Part shown: in pieces, positions 37,292 through 43,907 of the stretch
Layout of the letters: each line of letters starts with the position of its first letter
How positions within the stretch are numbered: the stretch's first letter is position 1
From: a virus
Strand: one strand, 5' to 3'
IMG/VR virus record: IMGVR_UViG_3300032753_000003
Location: 64,001 to 128,000 of that record
Length of the DNA: 64,000 nucleotides
Program-made: the position numbers and the translations under genes
Notes under the pieces: model-generated
Told to the model about the DNA's origin: nothing
What the model saw: only the letters and a program-made list of their open reading frames with translations
Database searches by the model: none

Positions 37292-37379
37292 TCAGGGATA
37301 GTTTAATTGGTAAAACTCCAGACTCTGACTCTGGCAACAGATAATGCTAGTCCACGTTCGAATCGTGGTCCCTGAACCA
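37292..37379 (+). tRNA. tRNA-Gln(CUG) with 17 nt variable region
   Basis: ccaga-CTCTGAC-tctgg; V = caacagataatgctagt; ACCA. Confidence 0.85.
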
Positions 37380-37406
37380 ATCAATAAATATTGTAGGAGG
37401 TGTATC

Positions 37407-37619
37407 ATGAAAACTGTTATTGTAGTTAGGCCGCGCGGCGGATGGCGATATGGATTTCCCAAGACATTGCCACCTGAAGACGATGTAGTCTGGACCAACA
37501 AGCAACACCTAAACTTCAAAGAGAAATTGGTTTGGTGGTTGCGTTATCAAAATTATCCAGATTGGTTGATCAAGAGTATTGGAGATTTAAACAACATACT
37601 TGAATTTAATCAAGTATAA
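37407..37619 (+). CDS. hypothetical protein
   Basis: AGGAGG RBS, ATAAATA upstream, GGWRYGFPK motif. Confidence 0.7.
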   Translation: MKTVIVVRPRGGWRYGFPKTLPPEDDVVWTNKQHLNFKEKLVWWLRYQNYPDWLIKSIGDLNNILEFNQV

Positions 37620-37621
37620 TT

Positions 37622-37704
37622 TGAGGATGTAGTTCAATTAGTAGAACTGCTAACTTTGACTCTGGCAACAGATAATGCTAGTCCATGTTTGAATCGTTGT
37701 CCAT
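37622..37704 (+). pseudogene. degenerate/chimeric tRNA-Gln(UUG)
   Basis: D arm and CTTTGAC loop kept; anticodon stem unpaired; 3' half copies 37331-37371; no CCA. Confidence 0.7.
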
Positions 37705-37712
37705 AAAACAAT

Positions 37713-37911
37713 TATATTTGCTGTAGACAATGCAGTGATCTAGTGGAATTCCTGTGACTACGGCTGCGACGGCGGCGGGCAGGAGTTGCGATATCCGTTC
37801 TGTGTCAGCTTAGGTGCGCACCCAAGCTGTTACTAGATTGGAGAATGCTTAAGATACGATCCGCGGAGGCTCGAAACACCCAGGTAGATCTGCATTGTCT
37901 ACAGCAATATG
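37713..37911 (+). ncRNA. candidate ~200 nt structured RNA closed by 18 bp perfect stem
   Basis: ttgctgtagacaatgcag (37718-37735) / ctgcattgtctacagcaa (37890-37907); no ORF. Confidence 0.65.
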
Positions 37912-37914
37912 TAT

Positions 37915-38067
37915 GTTCGGGATGGGGAAATGGTATACCCGCCGGCGTGAAGGCTGGAGGTTGTAACAGGTACGGTGAGTTTTACCAGTAGTAAGCTGCA
38001 GACGAGGCTGGTAGCAAGAGACGTATGTCTGACAACGTTGTAGGTTCGAGTCCTACTCCCGACACCA
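37915..38067 (+). ncRNA. oversized tRNA-like gene (~153 nt) with ~80 nt multi-hairpin variable region
   Basis: tcggga/tcccga acceptor, GGAAATGGTA D loop, gtagg-TTCGAGT-cctac, ACCA; 6 nt loop GTGAAG. Confidence 0.7.
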
Positions 38068-38068
38068 C

Positions 38069-38142
38069 AGGGGTGTAGTTCAAAGGAAGAATAATAGTCT
38101 CCAAAACTATCGATGCAGTGTCAGGATCTGCCACCCCTGCCA
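38069..38142 (+). tRNA. tRNA-Trp(CCA), atypical T-loop
   Basis: atagt-CTCCAAA-actat; GCCA. Confidence 0.85.
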
Positions 38143-38154
38143 ATAAATATCAAC

Positions 38155-38325
38155 ATGAAAATGTCAGAGATATCAAAACCCATGACTATCAGAAGCGCTA
38201 CTGACAGCCACGGCAATGTAAGTAGAGCCAAAGCTGAACGCATATATGATCCCAAGGGTTGGTTCAAAAAGAACAAGAGCAGGATAAGCAAGAGATTTAA
38301 GCCTGCAGGCGGCTCTGTTAGTTAA
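38155..38325 (+). CDS. small basic protein with MKMSEI N-terminus
   Basis: ATAAATA upstream; stop lies inside tRNA-Thr. Confidence 0.55.
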   Translation: MKMSEISKPMTIRSATDSHGNVSRAKAERIYDPKGWFKKNKSRISKRFKPAGGSVS

Positions 38326-38385
38326 GTGATATAACAGCTGATTCGTAACCAGCAATCGACAGTTTGATTCTGTCACGGAGCACCA
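38312..38385 (+). tRNA. tRNA-Thr(CGU)
   Basis: gctga-TTCGTAA-ccagc; ACCA. Confidence 0.8.
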
Positions 38386-38391
38386 ATCAAT

Positions 38392-38468
38392 GCCAGTGGG
38401 GAGGTAGTGGATATCTCACCATCCTCATAAGGTGGCTAAACAGATTTCGAGTATCTGCACCGGCACCA
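38392..38468 (+). tRNA. tRNA-CAU (Met or Ile2)
   Basis: ccatc-CTCATAA-ggtgg; ACCA. Confidence 0.8.
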
Positions 38469-38508
38469 TATTTCAATATAACTGCATTTACACCCGGTAA
38501 ATAACGAT

Positions 38509-38655
38509 ATGAAGCAACTTTTTATCAAATTAAGCTATTGTTGGCACATACCAATCAATATGGTTTCAAAATTCTTTAAGAGAATAAAACAAAAACATGA
38601 GTTCCACAAAAGTATGAAGAAGATGCGCAAACGAAATCCATTTATCTATAGATGA
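38509..38655 (+). CDS. 48 aa basic peptide ending RKRNPFIYR
   Basis: Open frame, stop overlaps next ATG. Confidence 0.65.
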   Translation: MKQLFIKLSYCWHIPINMVSKFFKRIKQKHEFHKSMKKMRKRNPFIYR

Positions 38656-41803: not shown

Positions 41804-41832
41804 GTTGACAGCAATCTAAAAGATGCTATTGT
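41804..41832 (+). promoter_or_regulatory. early promoter upstream of candidate ncRNA
   Basis: gttgacagcaatctaaaagatgctattgt. Confidence 0.8.
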
Positions 41833-41871
41833 ATATGAGTAAATGCTGTTTGACAAATTAGAAAGCTTATG

Positions 41872-42122
41872 CTTTGCTAGAGTAAAGCACGCACTGTGTC
41901 GCGAAAGATCCAGTGAGCTAAGATAGACAGGTCTTGCTCACAAACTGTTTACGCCAGCAGCTGATAGACCCGGCCAGGTTGAATTGATGTTGGTAGTTTA
42001 AGTAGGCTGAAAACCGGAGAACGAGGTTAGGTGCAAGCTCCACAGCAAGGCTCTAACTAGGGATCCAATTGCAGAGATTCGAGACACTCTGCCCAATGTT
42101 TCAGCTGCCGGCGTAAACAGTT
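41872..42122 (+). ncRNA. candidate structured RNA; 180 nt domain closed by 22 bp stem with one mismatch
   Basis: aactgtttacgcc-a-gcagctga (41943-41964) / tcagctgc-c-ggcgtaaacagtt (42101-42122); promoter at 41804. Confidence 0.65.
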
Positions 42123-42187
42123 ATGTAAAAAATTATAGTCCAAAAAAGATTAATGTATTATAATATAAATATCGTAACTTGAGTTTT

Positions 42188-42265
42188 CAGGGTATCGCCT
42201 AGCCTGGTATGGCACCAGTTTTGGGTACTGGAATAACGGTGGTTCGAATCCGCCTACCCTGACCA
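42188..42265 (+). tRNA. tRNA-Pro(UGG)
   Basis: ccagt-TTTGGGT-actgg; CCA. Confidence 0.92.
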
Positions 42266-42273
42266 ATAATAAT

Positions 42274-42349
42274 GGGGCCTTAGCTCATTCAGGAGAGCGC
42301 CTGCTTTGCAAGCAGGGGGTGGTCGGGGCAGAGCCGACAGGCTCCACCA
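42274..42349 (+). tRNA. tRNA-Ala(UGC)
   Basis: G3:U70, cctgc-TTTGCAA-gcagg; T-loop GGCAGAG; CCA. Confidence 0.9.
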
Positions 42350-42396
42350 TTATTTTATTATTCAAAACCATTTACTCATCAAAAAATTTAACAAAC

Positions 42397-42471
42397 GGTT
42401 CCATAGTGTACTGGTGCGCACAACGGTCTGTCTAATCGTTAGAGGGGGTTCAAATCCCTCTGGGATCGCCA
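42397..42471 (+). tRNA. tRNA-Asp(GUC)
   Basis: acggt-CTGTCTA-atcgt; GCCA. Confidence 0.88.
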
Positions 42472-42541
42472 ACGAATATATTGACATATAGACGTTTTTA
42501 AGTAACTATATATTATAATTTAATTTTAGGAAAGGTGCATT

Positions 42542-42804
42542 ATGTCAGAAAACGATAACAAGATCAAGGTCATATTTGCACCAGGTGCATTTGATAATTT
42601 CGAAGGCACTCAATAGAAGAACTCGAAGAGATAATTCAAGAGATTACAGCTATGGCCAAAATCGGCGAGCTAATAGATCACGCAAGGTTGATAAATGAAG
42701 ACGATTTCAATGATATTCCTGATGATGTTATAATGCAGTTGGCAAGCGGATTTGGCCTTATCGAAGACGAAGAAGTTGAAACTCGCAAGAGACCATTAAA
42801 TTAA
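42542..42804 (+). pseudogene. small acidic protein frameshifted at 42614-42615
   Basis: FAPGAFDNFEGTQ continues as EELEEIIQEI.. in another frame after 2 extra nt. Confidence 0.65.
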
Positions 42805-42808
42805 GAAT

Positions 42809-43549
42809 ATGTACGGCGGTGTGAAGAAACAACTTTGTGGTAAATGCTACAAAGAAATATCAGTTAATAACTTCAACCGGCATTACATATCATGCCTGGC
42901 ATCTGTACCTAAAAAAATACGCGGTATCGACTTTGATCCAAATATAGGATTTAAAAATGGTACAAGGCATGCATGGAACAAAGGATTATCTAAAAATACA
43001 GATAATAGAGTTTTAAAGAACGGGCTGGCTTTAAAGGGGCATCCAAACATTGGTAAATGTGCCGATCCAGAAAAAGAAAAACAACGTATATGTAAATTAT
43101 CTGTTAATGCTAAAAAGCAAGGTTTTGGAGGATACAATAAAAATGCAGGCCATTCTAAAAAATTTAAATATCAAGATAGCTTTGGTAATATTGTAACACT
43201 ACAATCAACCTACGAATTAGATACTGCTAAACTATTAGATAGTTTAAATATTAAATGGATAAGACCATCTTATTTGACATATTATAATAAAAAGTATTAT
43301 CCAGATTTTTTATTAGTTGATTATAACATATATTTAGATCCAAAAAACTCATATCTGGCAATAAAGGATAAAGATAAAATACGACTTGCATCTGAACAGA
43401 ACAATGTTAAAATATTCATACTAGAACAGACGCAAATAAACAAAGAATATATAAACACTATATTGGCGCGTAACTCAGCGGTAGAGTGCAATCCTGATAA
43501 GATTGAAGTCGGTGGTTCAACTCCATCCGCGCCAACCAACTACATGTGA
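42809..43549 (+). mobile_element. PD-(D/E)XK-type homing endonuclease-like ORF reading through tRNA-Ile
   Basis: S.YE...A..LD...IKW.RP, Y.PDF.L......DPK; NUMOD-like AWNKGL. Confidence 0.75.
43464..43538 (+). tRNA. tRNA-Ile(GAU)
   Basis: caatc-CTGATAA-gattg; ACCA. Confidence 0.9.
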
Positions 43550-43664
43550 GAAACGCATTTGGTAATGCAGCACAGGCATGTGCGTCCTGAGGTTCAATTC
43601 CTTTTGTGTCTCTGCAAGAGATGCTAGTTTGGAACAGTGCAAGTTCGATTCTTGCTGCTCACAT
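43544..43664 (+). ncRNA. tRNA-like RNA with GGCA-capped anticodon arm and two T-loops
   Basis: atgtgag/ctcacat ends; gcat-TTGGTA-atgc; gcaca-GGCA-tgtgc; TTCAATT and TTCGATT loops. Confidence 0.6.
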
Positions 43665-43743
43665 TTTATTTAGACAACATTGTTATATGAATTTATAATA
43701 ATGATATTGGGAGAGTACTTAAAATACAAAAGTAGAGTATAGA

Positions 43744-43828
43744 TCGGGGATAGTTTAATTGGTAAAACTTCGGACTTTGACTCCGATAACAGATAATGCT
43801 AGTGCAGGTTCGAATCCTGCTCCCCGAT
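43744..43828 (+). tRNA. tRNA-Gln(UUG) with 17 nt variable region, no CCA, inside an 18 bp inverted repeat (43733-43838)
   Basis: tcgga-CTTTGAC-tccga; tagagtataga/tctatactcta extends the acceptor. Confidence 0.8.
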
Positions 43829-43907
43829 CTATACTCTATTATGATTCATTGATATAATCGAACCTTCAATTATATTGTGTATAAATACATTATATTGAGG
43901 TTCAATT

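Follow-up and report, generated by a model that had tools for sequence, protein, structure and literature searches.

Two tRNA-Gln genes and a decayed copy share a 16-nt insert

The window, a 64,000-nucleotide stretch of viral DNA, comes from a 200-kb record that represents a fragment of a huge phage and contains 37 tRNA genes; this record is only 39% complete. A megablast search of GenBank phages with the 8-kb region gave no matches, and a search for kin with the RIIA protein found one relative (38% identity), which is without tRNAs in the stretch examined. No stop-codon recoding signal was found in the 200-kb record, despite the presence of a tRNA(CUA).

The same 16-mer occurs at three sites in the tRNA array, all on the + strand (Table 1). 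As the initial annotation had proposed, its carriers are an intact tRNA-Gln(CUG) gene, a decayed Gln(UUG)-like copy and an intact tRNA-Gln(UUG) gene, and each time it lies in the variable region. When up to 3 mismatches were allowed we found a sole additional match, which is unrelated.

Table 1. Features of the tRNA array, in window coordinates.
Feature	Position	Strand	Details	Basis
Long-arm tRNA-Asn(GUU)	35344-35427			ARAGORN
tRNA-Gln(CUG)	37292-37379	+	88 nt, CCA encoded, U1:A72, A73	ARAGORN; Rfam RF00005, 58.2 bits
Variable region of tRNA-Gln(CUG)	37335-37351	+	17 nt (C + 16-mer at 37336-37351), between anticodon stem and T stem	Exact match
70-aa ORF	37407-37619	+	Between intact CUG gene and decayed copy	Translation
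Decayed tRNA-Gln(UUG)-like copy	about 37621-37705	+	16-mer intact at 37667-37682	Alignment with the two intact genes
Endonuclease-like ORF	42809-43549
Promoter-like site	43671-43699	+	11/12 consensus positions, ~45 nt upstream of tRNA-Gln(UUG)	Consensus match only
tRNA-Gln(UUG)	43744-43829	+	86 nt as called, no CCA encoded, U1:A72, U73	ARAGORN; Rfam RF00005, 65.7 bits
Variable region of tRNA-Gln(UUG)	43787-43803	+	17 nt (T + 16-mer at 43788-43803)	Exact match
Endonuclease-like ORF	44175-44543
Homing endonuclease gene	45459-46136

Both intact genes have the expected cloverleaf, with a 7-bp acceptor stem, 4-bp D stem, 5-bp anticodon stem, 5-bp T stem, a 7-nt anticodon loop with U33 and a TTCRA T loop (the gathering score of the Rfam tRNA model is 29 bits). 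The identity set of E. coli GlnRS includes a YUG anticodon, A37, a weak U1:A72 pair, G10, G73, G2:C71, G3:C70 and U38. Both phage genes have the anticodon with A37, the weak first pair and G10, and G73 is missing from both. Position 2:71 is C2:G71 in both genes, position 3:70 is A3:U70 in the CUG gene and G3:C70 in the UUG gene, and both have C38 in place of U38, although the host's own identity rules may differ from those of E. coli. The acceptor, anticodon and T stems of the two genes differ by compensated changes, whereas the 16-mer and 21 nt of the D arm are the same in both, which bears out the earlier observation that the insert is kept exactly while the stems differ.

The decayed copy is full-length, with a 2-nt insertion, a broken anticodon stem, loss of G18 and three substitutions in the T arm. 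Neither ARAGORN nor Rfam calls it a tRNA, and its fold has z = -0.8. With the CUG gene it shares 93% identity over its 3' half but far less over its 5' half, so this copy may itself have undergone gene conversion. The 70-aa ORF that precedes it matches nothing in Pfam or PHROG.

A conserved small extra arm on single tRNAs of large phages

On the evidence of the sequences compared, the 16-mer belongs to a family of small extra arms whose sequence is conserved among many large uncultivated phages, each of which has it on a single tRNA. Its consensus is R-G-ACAK-(N)N-AATGCT-N-G-Y, in tRNA numbering R44-G45-ACAK-(N)N-AATGCT-N-G-Y48. Both intact window genes match this motif and the D-stem type that accompanies it, except that A replaces G at position 45. 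We found 33 distinct motif tRNAs at 47 loci, comprising 21 initiator-like tRNA-Met, 10 tRNA-Gln and 2 tRNA-Trp. Exactly one motif tRNA was present per record in 36 of 36 whole records, six of which are 99-100% complete by CheckV. In an alignment of 22 motif tRNAs (A1), 97.5% of cloverleaf cells pair and 18 of the 25 pairs change on both sides; the stems are full of compensatory changes, and the arm is almost fixed.

Conservation at some positions is partly a matter of ascertainment, as most motif instances were retrieved with patterns in which those positions were fixed. A search that fixed AATGCT and the Met anticodon loop and nothing else gave 24 distinct tRNAs, every one with RGACA(G/T) before AATGCT and N-G-(T/C) after it. 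Scans based on the D arm, which leave the variable arm unfixed, turned up three further phage lineages with long-arm tRNA-Gln (L068, L112 and L179) and another with a tRNA-Trp (L126); all of these tRNAs have the motif, with variation at only 3-4 of its positions, and differ in their anticodon and T stems. Lineages L179, L068, L112, L203, L209, L213, L224 and L254 have a near-identical arm on tRNA-Gln. BLAST matches to the motif tRNA-Gln of L203 were mostly genuine tRNA-Leu genes and were set aside.

The arm is tied to one type of D arm (G10-U11-N-U13 / A22-N-A24-Y25, with A14 and R15), which is present in 31/31 motif tRNAs versus 99/817 other tRNAs. The tRNA-Gln(CUG) of lineages L055-L058 has the same acceptor and D arm as the window gene but a 4-nt variable loop, which points to gain or loss of the arm on a constant tRNA body. 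A tree built from the tRNA bodies, the arm and the anticodon being masked, implied 21 changes of motif state and 34 changes of identity among 207 rows and had too little signal to distinguish one origin of the arm from several.

The initial annotation had suggested an exact search for the 16-mer, and had held that its reading would be refuted if the insert proved common in known phage tRNA-Gln. The exact form is unique to this record: IMG/VR contains 50 matches to it, which we attribute to chance because none lies inside another tRNA. Half of the objection nevertheless holds, since the motif family is common in tRNAs of uncultivated phages, as are long variable arms of any kind; unrelated long arms are also common on phage tRNA-Gln. 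A BLAST search of GenBank phages with the Gln(UUG) gene hit only 5' halves or tRNA-Gln genes without the insert. A pattern for the motif in Gln context found no such tRNA among 185,579 prokaryote species representatives; seven matches in prokaryote genome contigs were rejected, as they lie inside Bacillales coding sequence and not in tRNAs. The closest cultured carrier that we found is Bacteroides phage PhiCrAssBcn22/23 of B. intestinalis, in which a diverged form of the arm is present on an 85-nt initiator-like tRNA-Met (OQ221557, 88744-88828) that is unannotated in GenBank. The locus is therefore a member of a wider group and not a one-off, and in full-text literature searches we found no paper describing the arm motif or the group.

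Pairing within the arm

The arm is predicted to fold weakly. The insert alone has a predicted energy of -1.5 kcal/mol (z = -0.6), no better than shuffled sequence, in agreement with the weak pairing described in the initial annotation. An anticodon-like 7-nt loop with U33 cannot be drawn in it. The bases flanking AATGCT form A:U in 13/33 motif tRNAs, U:A in 10/33 and G:U in 2/33, with both the A:U and U:A states present in each of four tRNA body classes, which suggests that one arm pair covaries in part. This proposed pair fails in 8/33, mostly in an ACAT subgroup. A model in which ACAG pairs with CT-bulge-GT was given up as the sole model, because the supposed bulge base covaries with the base before AATGCT.

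Comparison with known long-arm tRNAs

In textbooks, a long variable arm marks a tRNA as one for Leu, Ser, Tyr or Sec. The phage motif tRNAs resemble these class II tRNAs of bacteria in that more than 10 nt separate the anticodon stem from the T stem (17 nt in both window genes), the last of them being available for a 15:48 pair. They differ in having Gln, Met or Trp anticodons (CUG and UUG in the window genes), a 4-bp D stem and a short, weakly paired arm in place of a stable stem. They differ also in that the arm conserves sequence and not only shape, with the same sequence across three identities.

Long arms combined with class I-type anticodons also occur in the nematode nev-tRNAs (PMC3333845) and eukaryotic nov-tRNAs (Hamashima et al. 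2016, cited in PMC5389517). There, a Leu- or Ser-type body has an altered anticodon and is charged with Leu, whereas the phage tRNAs have Gln-like or initiator-like acceptor and D arms and an arm motif of their own. Another parallel is offered by engineered aptamer-tagged tRNAs, in which a small variable-arm hairpin serves as a handle and the tRNA is active in translation (PMC7590224). We propose a similar use of the arm in the phages. The engineered molecules are man-made, built on an allo-tRNA chassis and have known protein partners, whereas the phage arm is natural and its partner putative.

A possible handle for a trans-acting partner

The explanation that we tentatively favour, at somewhat less than an even chance, is that the arm is kept in the mature tRNA and acts as a sequence-specific handle for a putative trans-acting partner. 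The three local copies would be paralogues of one phage tRNA-Gln lineage in which a small extra arm replaced the variable loop, and their identity would then follow from common descent and purifying selection. The arm would not be removed, but would extend outwards from the core like that of a class II tRNA, its last base probably forming the 15:48 Levitt pair. Any hairpin that it forms would be weak, with a purine bulge and a short loop that contains AUGC. The partner, which may be a phage or host protein or RNA, would read those nucleotides of the arm that are invariant and look unpaired, and would single out one tRNA per genome. The tagged tRNA is probably still charged by the normal class I synthetase; in the solved GlnRS complex, this type of enzyme approaches the tRNA from the face opposite the arm. 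Class II tRNAs function with EF-Tu and the ribosome. Small hairpins that bind proteins have been accommodated in the variable arm of engineered tRNAs (PMC7590224).

The initial annotation had listed a sequence-specific binding site among its suggestions. The overall pattern–invariant, apparently unpaired nucleotides, weak pairing and one tRNA per genome–fits that idea, but a partner gene was not found by clustering of neighbouring genes, in which the only widely shared family was a homing endonuclease. Against a handle also stands the fold prediction, which gives no stable arm. Because unrelated long arms are common on phage tRNA-Gln, part of the pattern could also stem from an advantage that any long arm would confer.

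Alternative explanations

An alternative that we consider unlikely, and the one that survives best, is that the arm is a purely cis-acting structural module, in which the arm, and especially its 5' G-A-C-A, packs on the A:U-rich D stem and stabilises the core with no outside partner. The strict coupling of the arm to one weak, A:U-rich D-stem type (31/31) speaks for this idea, and positions 44, 45 and 48 keep their usual core roles (R44, G45, and Y48 opposite A15). However, an identical D arm with a 4-nt loop exists in intact-looking tRNAs, so the arm is not needed for folding, and AATGCT, its most conserved part, would sit at the outward-pointing tip, far from the core.

The insert could instead be neutral, its local identity reflecting recent duplication or gene conversion aided by the homing endonucleases of the array (Table 1). 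The contrast between the halves of the decayed copy resembles a conversion tract, and within this genome alone the difference between the insert (0 changes in 16 nt) and the remainder (14 in about 70 nt) is only weakly significant. Nevertheless, the two intact genes have compensated differences on both sides of the arm, and a conversion tract would therefore need to cover the arm alone. The recent gene conversion suggested initially is also unneeded, because a near-identical arm is kept on the Gln tRNAs of other phages, and on other tRNA identities, with stems that differ throughout. Neutrality is already strained by this conservation, and we rate it as improbable.

Somewhat less credible still is a role in charging with Gln (and Asn), in which the arm would alter handling by GlnRS, non-discriminating GluRS or GatCAB. 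The same phage has a long-arm tRNA-Asn(GUU), and both tRNA-Gln genes keep U1:A72 without G73. On the other side, the sequence of the Asn arm is unrelated to the 16-mer, and no gene of the GlnRS/GluRS or GatB families is present in the 200-kb record, itself only 39% complete. The Met and Trp tRNAs that carry the same arm are not substrates of the Gln/Asn pathway, which makes a Gln-specific identity element, as suggested in the initial annotation, unlikely as a general role.

We give little credence to a role at the DNA level, in which the insertion would break the target site of a tRNA-cutting homing endonuclease and travel with the nuclease. A phrog_655 homing endonuclease gene does occur in the flanks examined for 14 of the 31 motif lineages, often 20-250 nt away, and there are five phrog_655 paralogues in the 200-kb record. 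However, the tRNA nearest to the endonuclease is the motif tRNA in 8/28 cases, versus 5.4 expected, so there is no specific link between the two. Immunity to cutting would, moreover, need no conserved insert sequence, and the partial base-pair covariation points to selection at the RNA level.

Least probable of all is that the insert is an excised intervening sequence, or that it switches charging to a class II-type (Leu/Ser) synthetase. Precedent for the switch comes from nev-tRNAs, in which a tRNA with a non-Leu/Ser anticodon can, given a long arm, be charged with Leu (PMC3333845), and A73 and the A15:U48 pair of the CUG gene are features that E. coli LeuRS uses (PMC9976931). Across the motif tRNAs, however, the discriminator varies (A, U, G), the D stem is of the 4-bp class I type, and the arm is far weaker than those of the Ser and Leu tRNAs in the same array. 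As to excision, a group I tRNA intron is a self-splicing fold of several hundred nt in the anticodon loop, and one with a bulge-helix-bulge motif depends on a splicing endonuclease and a ligase; the insertion here amounts to ~13 extra nt in the variable loop, there are no Rfam intron matches, and we know of no bacterial or phage tRNA intron so small or in this loop. The RtcB family, like the CCA-adding enzyme and Ro60 families, was not found in the 200-kb record (39% complete).

Implications for phage tRNA biology

Many large phages thus have a mini-arm of conserved sequence on one tRNA per genome, be it a Gln, an initiator-type Met or a Trp tRNA. Initiator-type Met, Gln and Trp are the three tRNA bodies that GlnRS is known to accept. 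More speculatively than for the handle itself, and with considerable doubt, we suggest that many large phages tag one initiator-type Met, Gln or Trp tRNA with a conserved hairpin, and that during infection a dedicated partner recruits or protects the tagged tRNA or diverts it to some task apart from bulk decoding.

In practice, tRNA genes bearing this arm are easily misannotated or missed, as in the case of the tRNA-Met of PhiCrAssBcn22. Were the arm retained in the mature tRNA, phages could distinguish one tRNA from all the rest, which would bear on why phages carry tRNAs and on how these interact with host defences and the translation machinery. If the arm is indeed read as a tag, it would be a natural counterpart of the engineered aptamer-tagged tRNAs and would add to the control of translation by phages a new class of recognition, between RNA and protein or between two RNAs.

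Three tRNA-Gln copies share a long variable arm

The identical 16-nt insert described in the initial annotation, in a tRNA-Gln(CUG), a decayed Gln(UUG)-like copy and a tRNA-Gln(UUG), is confirmed at window positions 37336, 37667 and 43788, and these are the only three occurrences of the exact 16-mer in the window. Together with the one base ahead of it, the 16-mer spans the whole interval from the anticodon stem to the T stem, making a 17-nt variable region; in tRNA-Gln this region is usually 4-5 nt. As had been noted, the two intact genes differ in their stems and keep the insert exactly: there are compensated differences in all three long stems, and the insert and a 21-nt D arm are common to both genes. 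The insert also pairs weakly, as claimed, since its fold in isolation is no better than that of shuffled sequence. The decayed gene is full-length; identity to the CUG gene is 93% in the 3' half, and the 5' half is much more diverged. All three copies are preceded by a similar flank of 10-12 nt, (G/A)AGTA(T/A)(A/T)(G/A)AT (37282-37291, 37611-37620 and 43734-43743). Two of them, the decayed copy and the CUG gene, also have a 3' flank in common, so the duplicated unit exceeds the tRNA.

The window covers bases 64001-128000 of an IMG/VR virus record; this record is 199,865 bp long with an estimated completeness of 39% (CheckV), so its source is a huge phage. It contains 37 tRNA genes, 30 of them in the window (ARAGORN), and genes for RIIA and collagen-like tail fibres. 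Inside the tRNA-rich region, 55300-55697 (+) is a full-length match for GOLLD RNA (Rfam RF02032), scoring 169 bits (E = 5.5e-46) where the gathering score is 150. A 76-nt tRNA with the amber-reading anticodon CUA and a normal variable loop lies outside the window (G000:C1:46529-46604), and ORF lengths across the record gave no sign of recoding of TAG or any other stop codon. The deaminase, carbamoyltransferase and radical SAM genes near the array may be nucleic-acid modification genes.

Features of the tRNA array and related long-arm tRNAs (window positions unless a locus is named)
Feature	Position	Strand	Remarks
tRNA-Gln(CUG)	37292-37379		58.2 bits, Rfam tRNA model
Decayed full-length Gln(UUG)-like gene	about 37621-37705		third 16-mer copy
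tRNA-Gln(UUG)	43744-43829		65.7 bits, Rfam tRNA model
Rfam tRNA matches without an ARAGORN call	47816-47915 (100 nt), 38069-38139, 42274-42346, 36832-36903	+	42-52 bits
Homing endonuclease, phrog_655	45459-46136	+	between tRNA genes; E = 6e-48
Two endonuclease I / PD-(D/E)XK-like ORFs	42809-43549, 44175-44543	+	between tRNA genes
TadA-like cytidine/adenosine deaminase, NodU/CmcH-type carbamoyltransferase, three radical SAM proteins (one B12-binding)	44706-45158, 39541-40998, 19702-23291, 46596-47792	+	in or near tRNA array
Long-arm tRNA-Ile(UAU) family	L069 11562-11656, L072 1059-1154, L103, L105, L120, L147, L157, L163, L165, L174, L247		other phage loci

The arm recurs on Gln, Met and Trp tRNAs of other phages

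An exact-match search, as proposed in the initial annotation, found 50 matches to the 16-mer in IMG/VR; none is inside any other tRNA, so we regard them as chance matches. Searching other phage tRNA arrays with the D arm instead, we found tRNA-Gln(CUG) genes with the same acceptor and D arm and an ordinary 4-nt loop (loci L055-L058), so gain or loss of the long arm took place on a tRNA body that otherwise stayed constant. We then left the arm sequence unconstrained, requiring the same D arm and, after a long gap, a T loop. This pattern found one phage lineage in IMG/VR (L068, L070, L071 and L073), and in metagenomes it found long-arm tRNA-Gln(UUG) in L112 and L179 and long-arm tRNA-Trp(CCA) in L126. 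The arm in these lineages is the same, with 3-4 variable positions, and the anticodon and T stems differ. The nearest relative is L179: its genes are likewise in the order Asp-Ile-Gln, and it matches the insert at 15 of 16 bases.

The consensus of the arm is R-G-ACAK-(N)N-AATGCT-N-G-Y (hereafter the motif). A pattern based on the core common to these arms retrieved 27 further tRNAs from IMG/VR in which the arm occupies the same position. The majority are tRNA-Met(CAU) in which bases 1 and 72 are mismatched, the hallmark of bacterial initiator tRNA; the remainder are tRNA-Gln(UUG) with several acceptor and D arms, and one additional tRNA-Trp. When AATGCT and the Met anticodon loop were the only fixed elements, all 24 distinct tRNA hits had RGACA(G/T) on the 5' side of AATGCT and N-G-(T/C) on the 3' side, so the conservation of the flanks is independent of search design. 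Altogether, 33 distinct tRNAs carry the motif (21 for Met, 10 for Gln, 2 for Trp), at 47 loci. Many of them lie on contigs of 100-435 kb.

A Gln-context pattern found no such arm in tRNAs of 185,579 prokaryotic species representatives. BLAST against GenBank phages gave nothing closer than a diverged variant, borne by an unannotated 85-nt initiator-like tRNA-Met in the crAss-like Bacteroides phages PhiCrAssBcn22 and 23. ARAGORN predicts seven tRNA genes in one stretch of PhiCrAssBcn22 (L259; OQ221557.1, 87244-90328), of which the GenBank record annotates none. Full-text literature searches returned nev- and nov-tRNAs, engineered aptamer-tagged tRNAs and class II reviews, and nothing on the arm. 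We rate the arm as a class II-like extension, with a conserved sequence, on class I identities. The premise that tRNA-Gln is normally class I stands for cells but not for uncultivated phages, where long-arm tRNA-Gln occur.

Conservation and copy number

In an alignment of 22 motif tRNAs, 97.5% of cloverleaf pairing cells are paired and 18 of 25 pairs have changes on both sides; to judge from their sequences, these appear to be working tRNAs that have strongly diverged. The arm is near-invariant while the 22 bodies diverge. Among all 33, the bases flanking AATGCT are A:U in 13, U:A in 10 and G:U in two, with the A:U and U:A states both seen in each of four tRNA body classes; the pair fails in the other eight, mostly in the subgroup with ACAT ahead of AATGCT. 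In a tRNA-Lys of L069, the AATGCT core lies within a hairpin that has a regular 3-bp stem and an AUGC loop. The D stem is G10-U11-N-U13 / A22-N-A24-Y25, together with A14 and R15, in all motif tRNAs, compared to 12% of the other tRNAs collected. The main rival to recognition of the arm by a partner is that its role is purely structural, in cis.

Exactly one motif tRNA is present in each of the 36 whole records that hold one, six of which are 99-100% complete (156-424 kb). The exception to this one-per-genome rule is the present record, which has two intact copies and one that has decayed, all Gln. In several phages the long-arm tRNA-Gln(UUG) adjoins an ordinary tRNA-Gln, whose anticodon is either UUG as well or CUG.

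Other long arms in phage tRNAs

The motif is one discrete family among several. Excluding Leu, Ser and Tyr, tRNAs of at least 82 nt make up 92 of 402 in loci with a motif tRNA, versus 22 of 460 in other tRNA-array loci. Arms of other sequence families occur on Asn, Thr, Lys, Ile(UAU), Cys and Pro tRNAs, and a scan for tRNA-Gln(UUG) that placed no constraint on the arm found at least seven further long arms unrelated to the motif.

Long-arm tRNA-Asn(GUU), of 84-93 nt with a regular variable arm, is recurrent in many phage tRNA arrays: it occurs in the window (35344-35427, +; arm GCC-GAAA-GGC), in L068 (4890-4974) and at about 15 other loci, and the window also has a normal 76-nt tRNA-Asn(GUU) (46127-46202). 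The tRNA-Ile(UAU) family (92-96 nt) has a variable stem of 4-5 bp and a conserved 7-nt loop, YAGATKA, and most members have the same D arm as the window Gln genes. A second initiator-like tRNA-Met with a different long arm is found in L198 (88 nt) and L222 (87 nt); its arm loop repeats CAUAA, the anticodon plus the next two bases.

Alternative explanations

Recent gene conversion, suggested initially as the reason for the identity of the copies, is not needed, although it could account for the chimeric appearance of the decayed gene. Another early suggestion, an identity element for a Gln pathway, is unlikely because the same arm is found on Met and Trp tRNAs; no GlnRS/GluRS or GatB gene is present in the sequenced part of the genome. 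A switch of charging to Leu or Ser, a case known from nematode nev-tRNAs (PMC3333845), is also unlikely, because the phage motif tRNAs have a class I-type D stem, a variable discriminator base and a weak arm. The size and position of the insert make an intron unlikely, and the record has no RtcB gene. Because phrog_655 (five paralogues in the record) is the sole widely shared neighbor family, we examined a link to this homing endonuclease and rejected it, as it adjoins any tRNA with no preference for motif tRNAs. Homing endonuclease and endonuclease-like genes in other phages lie 4-60 nt from tRNA genes.

A proposed role for the arm

We propose that the arm stays in the tRNA and would project from its core, as class II arms do. 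Bases of the arm that are invariant and appear unpaired (an AG bulge and an AUGC-containing tip) would be read by a putative partner that distinguishes this one tRNA. The data establish that the arm is conserved, that it is coupled to the D arm and that it follows the one-per-genome rule, whereas its retention, its fold and the partner are inferred. The motif tRNA would still be charged by its class I synthetase; in the GlnRS complex, the variable-loop face of the tRNA is left free. The classic non-cognate bodies charged by GlnRS are initiator-tRNA and tRNA-Trp amber suppressors, and for this reason the three identities that carry the arm, Met, Gln and Trp, may be related in how synthetases see them.
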